NCBI GenBank assembly: GCA_029855935.1
Contig: JAGSHN010000005.1
Location: 142,396 to 206,395, forward strand
Direction of reading: 5' to 3'
Length of the DNA: 64,000 nt
Source: Candidatus Thorarchaeota archaeon
Lineage (GTDB): Archaea; Asgardarchaeota; Thorarchaeia; Thorarchaeales; Thorarchaeaceae
Positions 1 through 25,103 of this stretch are shown here, piece by piece; within the stretch, counting starts at the first letter, position 1; every line of letters begins with the position of its first letter. Both the position numbers and the translations under genes were made by a program. Below the pieces are notes generated by a model. It worked only from the letters and a program-made list of their open reading frames with translations. It had not been told where the DNA came from and ran no database searches.

Positions 1-1813
1 AGTATACAAGAACGTGAGTTGCATTCCACATCTTGAATACGCGTAGCGACTCCGTCAGATTCAAGGCCATCAACGCATAGCCCATAAGAGCTATCTGCGT
101 CCTATTGTGAGTTGAGTTGTCGACTATTGTTCGCCCGCCACCAGCGCTATTAATCCAGTATCCATAGTCCCACCAGCTGGCAATCGTTGCTGTGGGCGGA
201 AGAACGTTCCTGATGAAGTTCATAGCGGTCTGCCAGTCAGTGTACTGTGCACCCTCGGCAATACTGCCAGATGCGAGCTCTGGACCACTGACCTGATTCA
301 CGGTATAGCTGACACCACCAAAGACTGCCATAGATAGGACTAGAGCAACAAAACCATAGGCCATCAGCGTGTGCTCCGATGTCAGAGAAGTGCTGACTCG
401 AAACCGTCTTCTCTCAAACACCGATTTCTCGGCAACTATCTTTGCATATGGCGACAGAGTCTGATGCACAGCCACAGCTGACAGGATGGCAACCCCTGGC
501 GCGAGAATCAGAGCCAACCGGATCATGCTTCCCGCAAAGTACACCGACGTGAGGCCATATAGAAGGATGAGCCAGTCCTCATCGTGGCCTCGCTTGTAGA
601 GGAAGTACATACCGAGCGGGAAGAAGAATATCAGCACCAGAAGCGTGTTGTAGAAGCTTGACCACGGGCTCGGGAGATGCTCTGCAACAGAGGCGAAGAT
701 CCGCTGGTCGAGCCTATAGAAGGGATTGATGACCGTCAGAAACTTGCCACCGATTCGGAGAACTGCGTTGGAATTGGCGGTTCTGATTGACAGGTCAGTT
801 CCACTCCCGTATAAGAAGTAGGCACCGACGGCAATCAACGGCATGATGAGGCCTATTAGGAGCGGCTTCATGTGCGGAGAGAGTGCTGCAGCCGTAGAAA
901 CACGATACCTCTCTATGCGTGTCCAGACCTCGTAGCTGGCAAGGAGCGCACCCACAGCAATCGGGGCCATATACGAGAGGGAGGTGATGTTCTCAAATCC
1001 GTTGCGAGGAACCAGTCCCCCGATGAATAGGCCCAATGATATCGTAATCATGTAGGAGGATAGAAGGCGCCGGCTGTACCGGCCTGCAACAAACATAAGG
1101 AATGCGTAGACAGCCAGAAGATCAACGAGGAAGTCAGCTGCGCCCCACGAGGCCATCAGATATCCGACCGATAGCCCCGCACCGACCGCAGAGGCAATCG
1201 AGTCGCGTTTGATGCTGCGAGTGAAGAAGAACAGACCGAGCACTATTGCGAAAACACCAATACACTCATTGTCAAAGAAGCCTTCCACAGTTCTCTGTAG
1301 GAAGGCGGGGAGATATCCCATGAACAGCGCAGTCAGAAGCCCTACGGTGTTGTTGTAGAGCTCGCGACCAAGAAAGAATGCAACAATTGTTGTCAGAGCA
1401 CCCATCAGAGCAGGCATGATCACAGAAACAAAGGTCACACTCACGTTGATTCCGAGAGCATGTGCTGCGAAGTAGAGGAAGGCGCTGGTGAATGGTACAC
1501 CAACATAGGTGGCCGTTGCAATGTCCCGGCCAAAGGGCATCCATGTCGTGTCATCGTACCAAGTGAAGAAGGCACCATATCCATGCTCTGAGATGTACTC
1601 AGTGACCTTGAGTTGGAACCAAGGGTCGAACGCGCGGACTATTGGCTGCCTATCGACAAGAGGAAGAAGCCGAAGGGCGAGTGACACGAAGAAAATTATC
1701 GTCAAGGCAACAATGACCATCACGGATCCTCGTGAGATCTTTGCTTTCGGACGGTGAAATACCTGGCGGAGAAATCTGCCTGCAGACCTCTTGAGCTTCC
1801 TGAATCGGGCCAT
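1..1813 (-). CDS. aglB: Oligosaccharyltransferase catalytic subunit AglB/STT3, eukaryote-like (3' end runs off window)
   Basis: Not in ORF track (no stop in window). Manual translation from ATG 1813: MARFRKLK...RAFDPWFQ...WYDDTTWMPFGR...GFFDNECIG...IFASVAEHLP...ASWWDYGYWI...VDNSTHNRTQI; many TM segments. Confidence 0.95.
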   Translation of the reverse strand, partial: MARFRKLKRSAGRFLRQVFHRPKAKISRGSVMVIVALTIIFFVSLALRLLPLVDRQPIVRAFDPWFQLKVTEYISEHGYGAFFTWYDDTTWMPFGRDIATATYVGVPFTSAFLYFAAHALGINVSVTFVSVIMPALMGALTTIVAFFLGRELYNNTVGLLTALFMGYLPAFLQRTVEGFFDNECIGVFAIVLGLFFFTRSIKRDSIASAVGAGLSVGYLMASWGAADFLVDLLAVYAFLMFVAGRYSRRLLSSYMITISLGLFIGGLVPRNGFENITSLSYMAPIAVGALLASYEVWTRIERYRVSTAAALSPHMKPLLIGLIMPLIAVGAYFLYGSGTDLSIRTANSNAVLRIGGKFLTVINPFYRLDQRIFASVAEHLPSPWSSFYNTLLVLIFFFPLGMYFLYKRGHDEDWLILLYGLTSVYFAGSMIRLALILAPGVAILSAVAVHQTLSPYAKIVAEKSVFERRRFRVSTSLTSEHTLMAYGFVALVLSMAVFGGVSYTVNQVSGPELASGSIAEGAQYTDWQTAMNFIRNVLPPTATIASWWDYGYWINSAGGGRTIVDNSTHNRTQIALMGYALMALNLTESLRVFKMWNATHVLVY

Positions 1814-2127
1814 AATGGGTGCGCTCTCCAATTCGTCTGGAATCATCGGCATCAGACTGTGGATGTGCTAAAAAGGTTGCGTTTGGAGGGGCACTTGTAC
1901 TAGGACTGCAAACAGCTGTCATGTAGAACTTCGTCGTTTTTGGAAATCTCGCGAGTGAATCATAGAGGCTCAAGGCAGAAAAGGAGTGCTACGATTCAGG
2001 AAGACAGGTGGCGAGCCAAGTCAGGGTGCAGATGACCGACGCCATTGGCACACGGTTGCCCACTGGATGGCTAATCAGTATCCAGCGATGTAGGAACACA
2101 GATAGAAGCGGTGAGAGAGGGAACAGG

Positions 2128-5088: not shown

Positions 5089-5809
5089 GTGGAAACCTCT
5101 GTATTTGCGGATAGTAGATATGCTTGGTCTCGATGTCGAAGCGGACAGGCGTGCCACTGCCATGTTGGATCGCCTGCTCGCTAGCCGTGACGTAGATGAT
5201 CTCGTGCAGAAACTCAGACGGACAATATATGATACGGAGGTCATAGTGTGTGGAGCTGCCCCCTCACTTGACGCCCATCTCAGGATGATCAAGGAACAGC
5301 ATTTCGCGGACGGGCGGGTGGTCATTGCAGCAGATGGGGCACTGGAGGCGCTGATAGGTGAGGAAGTCCATTGTGATATAGTCGTCACAGACCTTGATGG
5401 TGATCGGGGAGGGCTGATTCCCTCTACAAGACAGGGCACCCTTGCGGTAGTCCATGCACACGGAGACAACATCCCGCTCATACGAAGCGTTGTGCCGAGA
5501 GCATCTAATATCATTGGTAGTACCCAGGTTGAGCCGACTGAACATGTACATCTTTGGGGCGGTTTCACCGATGGGGACAGAGCATGCTATCTAGCGGCCC
5601 ACTACAGCCCACGCAAGATAATCCTAGCAGGCATGGACTTTGGGAGCATAGTTGGGAGATGGTCCAAGCCCGCGTGTGAGTCAGCGTCCCCAGCGAGCAG
5701 ACAAAAGCGTCTCAAGATGTCGATTGGGAGGTGGCTTCTCTCTACGATAGAGAAACGGTTTCACGTCCCTCTGACGTATGTTGACAATGAAACTGTGTTT
5801 CAGCGCTGA
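5075..5809 (+). CDS. mptE: 6-hydroxymethyl-7,8-dihydropterin pyrophosphokinase MptE (DUF115)
   Basis: IAADGA, VVTDLDG, VHAHGDN, GGFTDGDRA, GMDF; TTG start overlapping folP end. Confidence 0.9.
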   Translation: MDWAEWKPLYLRIVDMLGLDVEADRRATAMLDRLLASRDVDDLVQKLRRTIYDTEVIVCGAAPSLDAHLRMIKEQHFADGRVVIAADGALEALIGEEVHCDIVVTDLDGDRGGLIPSTRQGTLAVVHAHGDNIPLIRSVVPRASNIIGSTQVEPTEHVHLWGGFTDGDRACYLAAHYSPRKIILAGMDFGSIVGRWSKPACESASPASRQKRLKMSIGRWLLSTIEKRFHVPLTYVDNETVFQR

Positions 5810-6225
5810 GGTGGCAACTTGAGGCCGAAGAGATACGTCATTATGAGGTACGCAGCACCAGCGAGGATAGCACCAAGTATTAGGAGACGAGTCGCGTAAC
5901 CCGGCTGAAACACGTACTTCGAGGAGTAGTATATGAGGCCCAAGCCCAATGTCCCTATGAAAATAACCACCGACGCCACAAGGCCCTCCATTCCTAGCTG
6001 TACGTCAATTCCTCTCACAACAAGAATGGGCTCGCCATTGGGGCCACCAGCAATGGGCGGAGGAGTCTTCACCAGCGTGTAGATGTTTCCGCCGAGAACG
6101 AAGAGTATGGCAATGAACATGATTCCAAAGACCACTATGTCAGGAGGCCGTGTCGGCGTACTGAATCTCGGACGAGCTAGACGCATCCGAGGTCGAACTA
6201 TGAACTTGGGCCACCACATCTTCAC
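5800..6225 (-). CDS. OST3/OST6-family membrane protein, DC2/OSTC-like
   Basis: 141 aa, 3 TM; LGGNIY..V..PP, QLGMEGLVAS, C-terminal F..KLP match the DC2 pattern (recalled). Confidence 0.8.
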   Translation of the reverse strand: MKMWWPKFIVRPRMRLARPRFSTPTRPPDIVVFGIMFIAILFVLGGNIYTLVKTPPPIAGGPNGEPILVVRGIDVQLGMEGLVASVVIFIGTLGLGLIYYSSKYVFQPGYATRLLILGAILAGAAYLIMTYLFGLKLPPQR

Positions 6226-21128: not shown

Positions 21129-21359
21129 TTACCTCACTATCGACCAGCGGTAGCCACCCTTGCCGAACCGCTTCGTTATCAGACCAAGTGATACCAGTTC
21201 ATTTGCCGCTGCAACAAAGGCGTCACCACCAGCACAGTCCGTACAGACCTCTGCAAATTCGGGACGCCGTGCCATCTCGAGAATCTCCGAGGTGGTGAGC
21301 GAACCGGCAGTTTCGAGAATCTTGAGTACACACTGGGCATTCCTAGACAGGTCGGACAT
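21129..21359 (-). CDS. Small winged-helix protein with CxxC
   Basis: MSDLSRNAQCVLKIL..LTTSEI..CTDC..LVSLGLI..GGYRW; abuts the sufS start. Confidence 0.7.
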   Translation of the reverse strand: MSDLSRNAQCVLKILETAGSLTTSEILEMARRPEFAEVCTDCAGGDAFVAAANELVSLGLITKRFGKGGYRWSIVR

Positions 21360-21524
21360 CTTGGAATGCCACGGGCCAAACAACAATATGAAGACTTCTG
21401 TCGAGCCAATGTCGATAGGCATTCTCGTTACCGAACAAAATCCTTAAATGAATGCCAGAGTGCGCAATAATGCTCCTTCTTGCAGGGCCCTCTGAACTTG
21501 TGGAAAATAGATAAGGTGAAGGAA

Positions 21525-21779
21525 TTGGGAAGACGACGACGACAAAAGGTCATTAGACGACCTCAGAAGAAGATCCCAGATGTGTATCCGTGCCCAGAGT
21601 GTGGTAACACAGCAATCAAGATTGAGCTGTACAAGGATAACAAGGTGGCACTCGTCAAGTGTGGCTCCTGTGGACTTGAAACGCTGATTGACGAGGTGAC
21701 CCCTCTGACTGAAGCAGTCGATGTGTATGGAACATTCATCGACAGGTACTATGAGGAGAGGCGACTCACGACCACATAG
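21525..21779 (+). CDS. elf1: Transcription elongation factor Elf1
   Basis: (L)GRRRR basic N-terminus, CPEC..CGSC, EAVDVY..FID; TTG start after an SD-like GGTGA. Confidence 0.9.
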   Translation: MGRRRRQKVIRRPQKKIPDVYPCPECGNTAIKIELYKDNKVALVKCGSCGLETLIDEVTPLTEAVDVYGTFIDRYYEERRLTTT

Positions 21780-21861
21780 GCACAGGGCGCACAGATAGAG
21801 TAGCCCAACGAAGTTAGCAACCGTTATAAGAGGACAGCAATCTCGCAGGAAACGATCTCCA

Positions 21862-21978
21862 ATGCAGGCTGAAGTCACAACACAAATCTTGAGCATTATT
21901 CTGACGGCTCTAGGTATCATTGCCCTGCTACTGATTCTAGGATACTCCATCTACGGCGAGGAGGAGGCACAGGAGTAA
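21862..21978 (+). CDS. 38-aa single-TM microprotein, OST4-like
   Basis: Manual translation MQAEVTTQILSIILTALGIIALLLILGYSIYGEEEAQE*; TTATAA at ~21824; fills an intergenic gap. Confidence 0.6.
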   Translation: MQAEVTTQILSIILTALGIIALLLILGYSIYGEEEAQE

Positions 21979-22011
21979 TACAAGAGAAGAGTAGGTGGGG
22001 GCTCGCCATCC

Positions 22012-22257
22012 TTGTGGTCGGAGATCGCAAGTGTGGTCAATAGATCATTCGAGCAGGCGGCCGCGCATCTGGCGAACTTGGGACCAGTGAGAAACATTAT
22101 CGATGACCTACTCAAAGAGAGTCGGTCCATAGAGGGGTTTCTCGCTCGGCTGGAGGAATACGAGCGCACAGGCCAGGATGTAACAATCAGAACAGACATC
22201 CGCATCCTCATCAATGAGATAAGACACATAATGGCGCAGCGGAAGGCAACAAGATGA
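22012..22257 (+). CDS. Small helical hypothetical protein coupled to lhr
   Basis: ATGA overlap with lhr; natural amphipathic composition. Confidence 0.6.
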   Translation: MWSEIASVVNRSFEQAAAHLANLGPVRNIIDDLLKESRSIEGFLARLEEYERTGQDVTIRTDIRILINEIRHIMAQRKATR

Positions 22258-25103
22258 CCTCGGCGTTTGGCCGCTTGAGTAGCGAGATTGTCGAGTACAT
22301 ATCGAGTGAGGGGATTAGTGAGCCGACGCCAATCCAAGAAACCGCAATTCCGCAGATTCTTGACTCAGACGACTGTTTCCTGCTCTCGGCACCTACTGGA
22401 ACTGGAAAGACCGAGGCCGCGCTACTGCCTCTGCTTCACAAGCTATCCGCGAGGATAGAGAAGGACGGAGGCATCTTTGGAATAGCGATACTCTACATAA
22501 CACCGCTCAAGGCCCTGAATAGAGATGTGTTCAAGAGAGTAAGGGGGCTCTGCGAACATCTAGGGGTCGGAATAGATGTCAGGCATGGAGACACGACCGC
22601 CTATGCCAGAAGAAAGCAAGCACTCTATCCTCCCAACCTGATGGTCACAACCCCCGAAACCCTTCAGGCAATCCTCCCGGGAAAACGAATGCGCTTTAAT
22701 CTGCGCAGTGTCACGGCGGTTGTAGTAGATGAGGTTCATGAGATTGCAGGGAGCAAGAGAGGGGTCCAGCTTGCTGTCGCACTGGAACGACTTGAGCATC
22801 TAGTAGGGCGGCCAGTGCAGCGGGTCGGACTCTCGGCGACTGTTGGAAATACGCGAGAGGTCGCCAGACTCGTGGGAGGTGTAGGAAGACCAGTCAAGAT
22901 GCTCTGGGCGGGATATGCCACCAGAGATCTGTCAATGAGAGTAGAGATGCCAGTTCCGACCGACAAACATCATCTGCTCGCCAAGCGATTGGCCTACCCT
23001 GCACACCCCATATCACGTCTCGATAGAATCAGGGAGCTAGTGGAGGGACACGAGAGCACGATAGTATTTGCGAATACACGGTCACTGGCCGAAACTATGG
23101 GGGCGAAACTAAGGCTTCTGGCGCCCTCACTGGAGTTCGAGGTCCATCATGGATCGCTCTCTAAGGATGCACGCCTTGCGGCAGAACACCGTCTAAGAGA
23201 GGGAGAGATAAGAGCGATTATTGCCACATCAAGCCTGGAACTGGGTATAGACATCGGCCAGGTCGATCTTGTGATTCAATATGGCAGCCCCCGAAACACA
23301 TCTAGGGCGGTTCAGCGGGTTGGAAGGGCAGGTCATAGAGTTGGAGGTAAGTCAGAGGGGGTGATCATTGCCACAGTCAACCTAGATGATGTCACGGAGT
23401 CGGGGGTGATACTCCGAAGAGCACGGGCGAACAGAATCGAGAGAACGCACGTGTTACGCAGGGCATGGGACGTATTGGCACACCAGGTGGCAGGCATTGT
23501 TCTAGAGCATAGAGCTATAGATGTCAGAACGATACTTCAGATTGTCAGAAAGGCGAGCCCCTTCAGAAACGTTTCAATGGCCGAACTGAATAGAATCATC
23601 GATTTCCTAGCCAAGCGAGGTATGCTGCGTCGAAACGAGTATGAGGTCAAGATGGGACCGCGCACCCGAGCGTACTACTATGAGGGGCTGAGCACAATTC
23701 CTGATGTCCAGCAAGTTATGGTTGTCGACAGCATCACACGATCCAGCATCGGAGTGCTGGACGAAGAATATGTGCGCGAGTATATTGACACAGGGTCGAC
23801 TTTCGTGATACGTGGACGCCCGTATGTTGTTGTTTCAGTCGACGACGAAGAGGTACTGTGTCAACCAATCGTTGGGACTGACCCCACCGCACCGCGTTGG
23901 ATTGGTGAGATGATACCTGTTCCATTCGAGGTCGCATGTGAGGTTGCGGACCTGTGGAATAAGGCTGCAGAGAGGAACGAGAGAGAAGTTCGCAGAGACA
24001 TCAAGAAGAGATACTGCCTAGAGGATGCTGCGGTGGGCTTTCTTCTGAGGGAGAGTAGGAGGGCCAGAGAGGAGCTGGGATGCCTGCCCTCAAAACGCAG
24101 GATTGTGATAGAACAGTTTCCGAGTGGTACTGTGATCCACGCCCCCCTTGGAACTCAAGGTAATGAAACTCTCGGGCTGATCGTGGCGGCAGTCCTTACA
24201 ACGCGGATTGGCTCTGAGATTTTGGTCGAACACGACCCCTACAGAATCCTCCTCGTATCGAGGGGCACCGTCGATGCGCAGGCCGTCAAGAGTATTCTTC
24301 GCACCTATGATCGAGAACAAATCAATGTGGTTCTTCGACTGGCACTCAAGAACACACAGACCTTTGCATCAAGATTCGTACAAGTGGCCCGGAGAATGGG
24401 GATAGTCAAGAGAAACGCAAGGCTGCGTGACATTCCGGTAGGGAGGCTGATCGAGAGCTACGTGGACAGTCCTGTGTTCGAGGAGGCTATGGAGGAAGTG
24501 TTGTCCGAAAAGATGGACCCTATGCTGATTGGAAACGTGATCGACCGTGTCCGAGAGGGTACTGTTGAGATTACTACGGTCAGAACCGAGAAACCCTCAA
24601 CTCTGGCAAGGCTGATAGTCGAGCACAAGACTCGATTCGAAATGATCACAGAGGTCACTGGCGAAGAGGATGTCCTGCGCCTCCTTGAGGAGCGACTGCT
24701 ATCAAGACGGATGAGATTGGTGTGTATGAGGGGGGACTGGGAGAGCATAAGAACGGTGTCCACCTTGGACGACACCGTCAGATGTACGAGATGTGGGTCG
24801 ACACTCGTTGCGGTGACCAACACCACAGACAAGGACTTGAAACAGCTGATTGCACGAGTGCAGAGGGGAGAGAGTCTCACTAGAAACGAGAGGAGAAGAT
24901 ACGAACGGGCCGCACTGTCATCTAGCTTGGTGGCAACATACGGCAAGGTTGCGGTAATGGTATTGGCTGGACGCGGAATAGGACCAGAAACAGCATCAAG
25001 GATTCTCAGGCCGGGAAATGTAGAGCACCGATTGACTCTTTTGAGGGCGGTGGCAAGAGCAGAGAGAGACTATGCACGAACCCATCAGTACTGGGCCAGA
25101 TGA
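22254..25103 (+). CDS. lhr: Lhr-family SF2 helicase with C-terminal Zn ribbon
   Basis: APTGTGKTEAA, TPLKALNRD, TTPETL, DEVH, SAT, HHGSLS, ELGIDIG, QRVGRAGH. Confidence 0.93.
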   Translation: MTSAFGRLSSEIVEYISSEGISEPTPIQETAIPQILDSDDCFLLSAPTGTGKTEAALLPLLHKLSARIEKDGGIFGIAILYITPLKALNRDVFKRVRGLCEHLGVGIDVRHGDTTAYARRKQALYPPNLMVTTPETLQAILPGKRMRFNLRSVTAVVVDEVHEIAGSKRGVQLAVALERLEHLVGRPVQRVGLSATVGNTREVARLVGGVGRPVKMLWAGYATRDLSMRVEMPVPTDKHHLLAKRLAYPAHPISRLDRIRELVEGHESTIVFANTRSLAETMGAKLRLLAPSLEFEVHHGSLSKDARLAAEHRLREGEIRAIIATSSLELGIDIGQVDLVIQYGSPRNTSRAVQRVGRAGHRVGGKSEGVIIATVNLDDVTESGVILRRARANRIERTHVLRRAWDVLAHQVAGIVLEHRAIDVRTILQIVRKASPFRNVSMAELNRIIDFLAKRGMLRRNEYEVKMGPRTRAYYYEGLSTIPDVQQVMVVDSITRSSIGVLDEEYVREYIDTGSTFVIRGRPYVVVSVDDEEVLCQPIVGTDPTAPRWIGEMIPVPFEVACEVADLWNKAAERNEREVRRDIKKRYCLEDAAVGFLLRESRRAREELGCLPSKRRIVIEQFPSGTVIHAPLGTQGNETLGLIVAAVLTTRIGSEILVEHDPYRILLVSRGTVDAQAVKSILRTYDREQINVVLRLALKNTQTFASRFVQVARRMGIVKRNARLRDIPVGRLIESYVDSPVFEEAMEEVLSEKMDPMLIGNVIDRVREGTVEITTVRTEKPSTLARLIVEHKTRFEMITEVTGEEDVLRLLEERLLSRRMRLVCMRGDWESIRTVSTLDDTVRCTRCGSTLVAVTNTTDKDLKQLIARVQRGESLTRNERRRYERAALSSSLVATYGKVAVMVLAGRGIGPETASRILRPGNVEHRLTLLRAVARAERDYARTHQYWAR

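Follow-up and report, generated by a model that had tools for sequence, protein, structure and literature searches.

The window, the 64,000-nucleotide stretch of thorarchaeal DNA analysed here (G000:C14:142396-206395), comes from a genome of 2.97 Mb that is 97% complete. Between its genes for Elf1 and the Lhr helicase lies a very short open reading frame, and the features in and around this spacer are as follows:

21480..21779, forward strand: Elf1, the upstream neighbour (Pfam Zn_ribbon_Elf1, E 2e-17; synteny)
21816..21830, forward strand: BRE/TATA element AGCAACCGTTATAAG, with TTATAA at 21824-21829; putative promoter
21862..21978, forward strand: coding sequence of the 38-aa microprotein, ATG at 21862 and TAA at 21976-21978
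21994..22001, forward strand: Shine-Dalgarno-like GGTGGGGG, 10 nt 5' of the orf81 TTG start; putative, a sequence reading
22012..22257, forward strand: orf81, a small four-helix protein with a TTG start and a stop that overlaps the Lhr ATG (ATGA)
22254..25103, forward strand: Lhr helicase, the downstream neighbour (Pfam DEAD, Helicase_C, WH_Lhr and DEAD_assoc)

Translated from the window sequence, the microprotein reads MQAEVTTQILSIILTALGIIALLLILGYSIYGEEEAQE, which divides into a short N-terminus (MQAEVTTQ), a transmembrane (TM) helix at about residues 9-31 and an acidic tail (GEEEAQE). A sequence-only reading of this DNA had singled out the same 38-aa ATG-TAA frame on the forward strand and a TATA-like box near 21824; the peptide is as it was quoted there, and the TTATAA is present and belongs to an element conserved in family loci. 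The frame had also been described as missed by the ORF track, which holds only in that it falls below the length cut-off, as relatives are publicly called as "hypothetical protein". In the window the TTATAA lies 38 nt from the microprotein ATG, and orf81 begins 33 nt after the microprotein stop. The only sequencing run listed for this sequence is a hydrothermal-vent metagenome, a possible source of the DNA, with no RNA run listed.

The Elf1 side of the locus encodes PolD DP2, RPA, a class-V aminotransferase and a 97-aa ORF, and an EngB-type GTPase follows Lhr. The 3' end of Lhr and the start of the GTPase gene share 32 nt (window 25072-25103), an overlap that suggests a single transcription unit running from the microprotein through orf81 and Lhr to EngB. 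The 97-aa ORF, orf97 (window 21129-21422, reverse strand), is conserved at 57-82% identity across the family, had no Pfam or NCBIfam match, and immediately precedes the gene for the cysteine desulfurase-like class-V aminotransferase, with which it shares its strand. A 168-aa ATG ORF (window 21444-21950, reverse strand) runs antisense to Elf1 and the start of the microprotein, and is most likely spurious because both sense genes are conserved.

Conservation of the microprotein within the GTDB family of the window was nearly complete. A 20-sequence profile (A1) matched it in 84 of 85 family genomes at E-values from 1e-11 to 1e-20, with the same start and stop, and the sole genome that lacked a match is 87% complete. 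Searching six frames with the single peptide recovered it in 23 of the 24 other family genomes, always in an open frame of 39-59 aa. Family copies are 33-39 aa long, start with MQ, have one TM helix, and end in G and a run of E or D, after which the stop comes at once; M1, Q2, L14, L22, Y28 and G32 are invariant, G18 is found in 97%, and in the wider Asgard alignment Tyr28 is invariant in 40 of 40 sequences. The gene order cysteine desulfurase-orf97-Elf1-microprotein-orf81-Lhr was common to the loci examined, with synteny of orf81 and the microprotein in 18 of 20. Upstream of the microprotein, 35 unique family loci share the consensus TcAGcAAt.aTTATAAG, and in 33 of these TTATAA starts at a distance of 36 nt from the ATG, an arrangement that fits a putative archaeal BRE/TATA promoter with a very short leader.

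The sequence-only reading had proposed conservation and dN/dS as checks, and both came out in favour of a gene. Mean pS was 0.77, with synonymous sites near saturation, against a mean pN of 0.29; the median dN/dS over 76 unsaturated pairs was about 0.27, and variability at codon positions 1, 2 and 3 was 0.25, 0.13 and 0.47. This substitution pattern is that of a coding gene under purifying selection, and judged on the comparative sequence data the ORF is almost certainly a real, conserved gene for a one-helix membrane microprotein. We also considered whether the frame might be read through into orf81, as the two lie in the same frame with one TAA between them in the window, and rejected this reading because the frames differ in relatives. 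One genus (g4; loci L019 and L020, ~2096-2677) has the cluster without Lhr, with an EngB-type GTPase directly after orf81; Lhr was not found with our query in any of seven g4 genomes, in which the microprotein and orf81 are kept.

Relatives extend well beyond this family. The first matches outside it were weak and lay in frames of 34-45 aa, and the peptides they identified are built like the family members, with a short head, a single helix that ends in (I/L)L(A/G)Y, and an acidic tail. Some of these relatives lie directly upstream of Lhr (genera g31 and g23) and others upstream of an orf81 homologue (g50 and G025, a genome of the same order). A survey of the region upstream of Lhr in 35 further genomes added members in families f32, f22 and f20, and Lhr-adjacent microproteins are now found in families f8, f12, f15, f20, f21, f22 and f32. 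Scored with a profile built from Thorarchaeota only, the f32 and f22 peptides scored higher than any of 943 natural TM windows taken from the genome of the window (19.9 bits for f32); the f20 peptides were marginal by sequence with that profile, yet adjoin Lhr in several genomes. With a 40-sequence profile (A6), matches at E <= 1e-3 were obtained in 172 of 400 Asgard genomes and in more than 20 GTDB families, nearly all of the frames being 35-75 aa long; where a family had supplied sequences to A6, its share of this count is partly circular. When 1.84 billion proteins were searched exhaustively with the family profile, 25 clusters came back at E <= 1e-3, all of them 29-53-aa peptides of the family type. 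The named members of the family come from Thorarchaeota, Hodarchaeales and "Asgardarchaeia", and in Hodarchaeales and "Asgardarchaeia" metagenome-assembled genomes (MAGs) they are labelled "hypothetical protein". On these profile matches Thorarchaeota as a whole conserve the microprotein, and relatives can be recognised in many further Asgard lineages. One genus, g43 (loci L053-L057, Hodarchaeales by the name of P0025), encodes a 44-aa variant (..INWYYA.FIASAL..LLLILAYLLFYNEEEE..) that starts with TTG behind GGAG, and within the 6 kb examined neither Lhr, Elf1 nor orf81 adjoined it.

The earlier reading had taken the peptide for an archaeal homologue of OST4, the small single-TM subunit of oligosaccharyltransferase (OST), aligned without gaps to the human protein. 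The human OST4 sequence it used is correct, being identical to that in PDB 2LAT and 6S7O. Homology at this length is hard to read from sequence: human and yeast OST4 match each other at only 16.7 bits, which places the OST4 family at the edge of the reach of sequence methods. The Pfam Ost4 model (PF10215; 34 positions, gathering score 25 bits) did not match the window protein at E <= 10, matched none of the microprotein loci in 41 genomes, and matched 1 of 31 family members (E 0.17). A six-frame scan of 400 Asgard genomes with this model gave scattered noise only; its best matches (22-23 bits, in G177 and G178) were rejected because they lie in AT-rich junk frames or in the helix at the C-terminus of a 372-aa membrane protein. 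In the opposite direction, the family profile found no OST4 among PDB sequences, and none of its 25 matches at E <= 1e-3 among the 1.84 billion proteins is OST4-like.

With hhalign, the microprotein family scored 17.0 against an OST4 alignment consisting only of the human and yeast sequences (A3), with P 0.0014 and a probability of 17%, and the alignment placed residues 10-30 on OST4 7-27, with G18 on G15 and Y28 on Y25. The ungapped register of the earlier reading was thus reproduced, and it came out again from the Pfam Ost4 model on an Lhr-linked peptide of family f32, with G on G15 and Y on Y25. No other Pfam model matched this f32 peptide as well as Ost4 did, although the match (E 0.0073, 16.6 bits) stays under the cut-off. 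None of 200 column shuffles and one of 200 TM-core shuffles attained the hhalign score, which therefore exceeds 399 of the 400 shuffles, a control of the kind that the earlier reading had suggested. Natural TM helices are a fairer control than shuffles: 330 of them gave a mean hhalign score of 9.9, a 95th percentile of 14.2 and a 99th percentile of 18.1, and on this scale the two single OST4 sequences, at 14.4 and 13.9 against the family, stand at about the 95th percentile. Among 943 natural TM windows of the same genome, HMMER ranked human OST4 at 156 and yeast OST4 at 29. An HMM built from the two OST4 sequences gave the members a group mean of 2.0 against 0.5 bits, a shift set aside as evidence because the members are kin and all start with Met. 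In the Y-H-x-V motif of OST4 the His position is taken by T, S or M in the Thorarchaeota family, and Val comes at +2, not +3; the Lhr-linked f20 peptides carry G-Y-H-L-V and, read from their second ATG, have Tyr-His at positions 25-26, as OST4 does. Taken together, the sequence evidence for homology with OST4 is suggestive and keeps to one register, but it falls short of significance.

A signal of this size invites another reading, namely that this is a conserved Asgard membrane microprotein with a different partner or role, for example as an accessory subunit of some other membrane complex, and that its likeness to OST4 in size, Gly/Tyr spacing and docking could come from any small TM helix patterned with small and aromatic residues. 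A sequence signal as good is given by about 1 in 20 natural TM helices, and many unrelated single-TM Pfam families match members of the family at similar E-values. A language-model protein atlas likewise returned generic small TM clusters only (YldA, DUF3149 and MgtS-like, at scores <= 0.85) and no Ost4. The tail chemistry also agrees with a different partner, as it is opposite to that of OST4: the earlier claim that the two proteins share size and a polar tail is borne out for the 38-aa length and the single TM helix, and is not supported for the tail, which is acidic where that of OST4 is basic.

Prediction of complexes with STT3, the glycosylation enzyme on which eukaryotic OST4 sits, bears on this choice. 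The window encodes two OST components of its own:

2..1852, reverse strand: N-terminal 617 codons of STT3/AglB (Pfam STT3, E 1e-50; the full gene, L071:2048-4852:-, encodes 934 aa)
5800..6225, reverse strand: OST3/OST6-family protein, TM region only, 141 aa, DC2/OSTC-like (Pfam PF04756)

STT3 is single copy in the genome, with its last TM helix at 493-519 and a WWDYG motif at 560. Its cytoplasmic N-terminal arm (about residues 14-43) contains a very basic stretch, RFRKLKRSAGRFLRQVFHRPKAKISRGS, that is nearly invariant in 51 thorarchaeal sequences. When the STT3 TM domain (residues 1-530, with an alignment of 51 sequences) was combined with the peptide (31-sequence alignment), the predicted complex reached an ipSAE of 0.71 (0.69, 0.71 and 0.72 in three runs), and the best of three controls reached 0.00; both replacement control peptides were sequences not known to be TM helices, and the score, which is not binding, may owe something to recall by the predictor of solved STT3-OST4 complexes. 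Of 80 solved complexes, 58 reached this ipSAE mark, as did 2 of 110 mismatched pairs. At least 94% of contacts were common to the three runs, with a partner pLDDT of 75-76.

In the model, peptide residues 3-33 meet STT3 at 40-67 (first TM helix), 167-180, 463-474 and 499-518 (last TM helix), which is a predicted position flanked by the first and the last TM helix, at the OST4 site where the earlier reading had said that docking should be sought. Ost4 is described in a review as "nestled between TMH1 and TMH13 of Stt3" (PMC7226087). The contact pairs (STT3 56 with peptide 14, 53 with 18 and 21, and 49 with 25) run the peptide antiparallel to the first TM helix. Because the STT3 N-terminus is basic and therefore cytoplasmic, the antiparallel helix gives the microprotein a predicted topology with its N-terminus outside and its C-terminus inside; Ost4p has the same Nout-Cin topology, and its critical residues lie in the part of the helix nearer the cytosol (PMC3687696). 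An acidic C-terminal tail conflicts with the positive-inside rule for a cytoplasmic C-terminus. The Glu tail lies beside the basic STT3 arm in the model, and we infer that the two may pair. The most confident contact residues of the peptide (14, 17, 18, 20, 21, 22, 24, 25 and 28) are also the conserved ones, with a mean entropy of 0.75 bits against 1.57 bits for the other TM positions.

The genome also encodes other OST subunits of eukaryotic type. The 5800..6225 protein scored 34.9 bits against PF04756 (cut-off 27), covering model positions 183-288, and a 73-aa Ost5/TMEM258-like frame elsewhere in the genome (G000:C13:24488-24664, forward strand) was above the Pfam cut-off; ribophorin I was not found in the genome with its Pfam model. 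The microprotein gene is 20 kb from STT3 and adjoins neither the OST3/6-family gene nor the Ost5-like gene, and its conserved neighbours Elf1, orf81, Lhr and EngB have nothing to do with glycosylation.

We think it probable that the microprotein is an Ost4-like accessory subunit of oligosaccharyltransferase, seated on thorarchaeal STT3. Its helix would pack against STT3/AglB in the groove that the first and the last TM helix form, with the predicted orientation of N-terminus outside and C-terminus in the cytoplasm, through a conserved face formed by L14, G18, A21, L22, I25 and Y28, and its acidic tail would come to lie beside the very basic N-terminal arm that STT3 has in the cytoplasm. Such a subunit might stabilise STT3, and it might also help to recruit the OST3/6-type subunit. 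A different partner for this conserved membrane peptide seems unlikely to us, although it is the alternative to which we give real weight: it has to contend with docking predicted at 0.71 against 0.00 at the published Ost4 site and in the published orientation, with a conserved helical face that coincides with the predicted interface, with three alignments that give one register, and with the further eukaryote-type OST subunits in the genome. The proposal that this is an archaeal OST4 homologue is supported in part: the register, the f32 relative with Ost4 as its best Pfam match and the predicted STT3 docking speak for it, and the lack of a Pfam Ost4 match to the window protein and a rank near the 95th percentile among natural TM helices speak against it.

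A role tied to the gene's own operon was also weighed, in which the microprotein would be a membrane tether or partner of orf81 or Lhr, or a translated regulatory leader of the microprotein-orf81-Lhr-EngB unit. The orf81 protein is 75-83 aa long across the family, carries the motifs AFE..A.H..NL and TLRTDIRILINE, follows the microprotein in nearly all family loci, and matched no family in Pfam or NCBIfam. Through the ATGA overlap it is translationally coupled to Lhr, and it may be an Lhr accessory protein. Adjacency of the microprotein to orf81 or to Lhr in at least nine Asgard GTDB families, the short distance of 33 nt to orf81, and the placing of the cluster's only recognisable promoter element ahead of the microprotein are what an operon role would lead one to expect. 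A search for related loci with orf81 found Thorarchaeota only, a result that reflects a search pattern specific to the family and is uninformative outside Asgard. The AlphaFold model of orf81 has a four-helix fold (pLDDT 94), and its best fold match is the uncharacterised P. furiosus protein PF2048.1 (PDB 6E4J; TM 0.79/0.88, rmsd 0.9 A), a soluble four-helix protein, a likeness that counts against an operon role. Some lineages have the microprotein gene divergent from or convergent to Lhr, or kilobases away, and a leader would need no invariant helical face, no conserved Tyr and Gly, and no fixed length over such divergence. We regard an operon role as improbable; the linkage of the microprotein to orf81 and Lhr may simply reflect the position of the cluster promoter in front of the microprotein, with no functional reason evident. 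The least probable reading, a chance ORF in the Elf1-Lhr spacer that is not a gene, could appeal to the shortness of the frame and the absence of its exact sequence from the public protein collection, but it is refuted, as far as sequence can show, by the start and stop kept in 84 of 85 genomes, by purifying selection, by a promoter element conserved at fixed spacing, and by relatives called as proteins in other MAGs.

Because PF10215 is defined by a sequence match that the window protein does not give, we do not assign the microprotein as a proven member of that family. Common descent with eukaryotic OST4 is plausible and unproven, and we would put it forward tentatively. It is possible, if somewhat doubtful, that OST4 has its true Asgard orthologue in this family of Lhr-linked microproteins with acidic tails, which synteny allows one to follow across more than 20 Asgard families, Hodarchaeales among them. 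If it were, the STT3-OST4 core of OST subcomplex II would predate eukaryogenesis, and the tail would have changed from acidic to basic or KKxx as the enzyme moved to the ER, the Asgard tail being the one that pairs with the STT3 arm. If the microprotein is a subunit of STT3, the thorarchaeal OST would have at least four parts (STT3, an Ost4-like helix, a DC2/OST3-like subunit and an Ost5-like subunit), which would favour the idea that the Asgard ancestor was where the multi-subunit enzyme of eukaryotes came together.

That Ost4 had not been reported in archaea, as the sequence-only reading supposed, is wrong: homologues of Ost4 and Ost5 have been reported in most Asgard classes (Eme et al., 2023; Nature 618:992; PMC10307638). 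The portions of the text and supplements of that paper available to us give no Ost4 sequences, accessions or model names, and the supplementary discussion names nothing new beyond OST5 and WBP1. We place the microprotein with Asgard Ost4-like microproteins as a kind, and it shares with the reported homologues a wide Asgard occurrence and the same proposed role as an OST subunit. As the idea of an Asgard Ost4 was published in 2023, the value of the present locus is in confirmation and detail, not discovery: it supplies a sequence-defined family with alignments, an STT3 interface that can be tested, and a synteny rule, by which the gene can be sought beside Lhr or orf81 where profiles fail.

Two kinds of known system offer a comparison. 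The bacterial peptides AcrZ, KdpF and MgtS are, like the microprotein, single-TM peptides, 30-50 aa long, that annotation often overlooks, and they bind a large polytopic membrane protein and stabilise or tune it. They have no sequence relation to the thorarchaeal protein, and their genes usually lie next to that of the partner or are regulated together with it, which is not so for the thorarchaeal microprotein. Eukaryotic OST4 (yeast Ost4p and human OST4; PF10215; structures in PDB 1RKL, 2LAT, 6EZN, 6C26, 6S7O and 6S7T) differs in giving no significant sequence match to the window protein, in having a His after the Tyr that Thorarchaeota lack and the G-Y-H-L-V of the Lhr-linked f20 relatives contains, in a tail that is basic or KKxx where the microprotein has a Glu run, and in a host enzyme that sits in the ER instead of the cell membrane. 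In other respects the two proteins are alike: both have 36-38 aa, a single TM helix and a short N-terminus, often with one acidic residue in it; both have a Gly and a Tyr 10 residues apart (G18 and Tyr28 here) in the same register, with the critical residues in the cytoplasmic half of the helix; and the N-out/C-in topology and the position on STT3 flanked by its first and its last TM helix, published for OST4, are those predicted for the microprotein.
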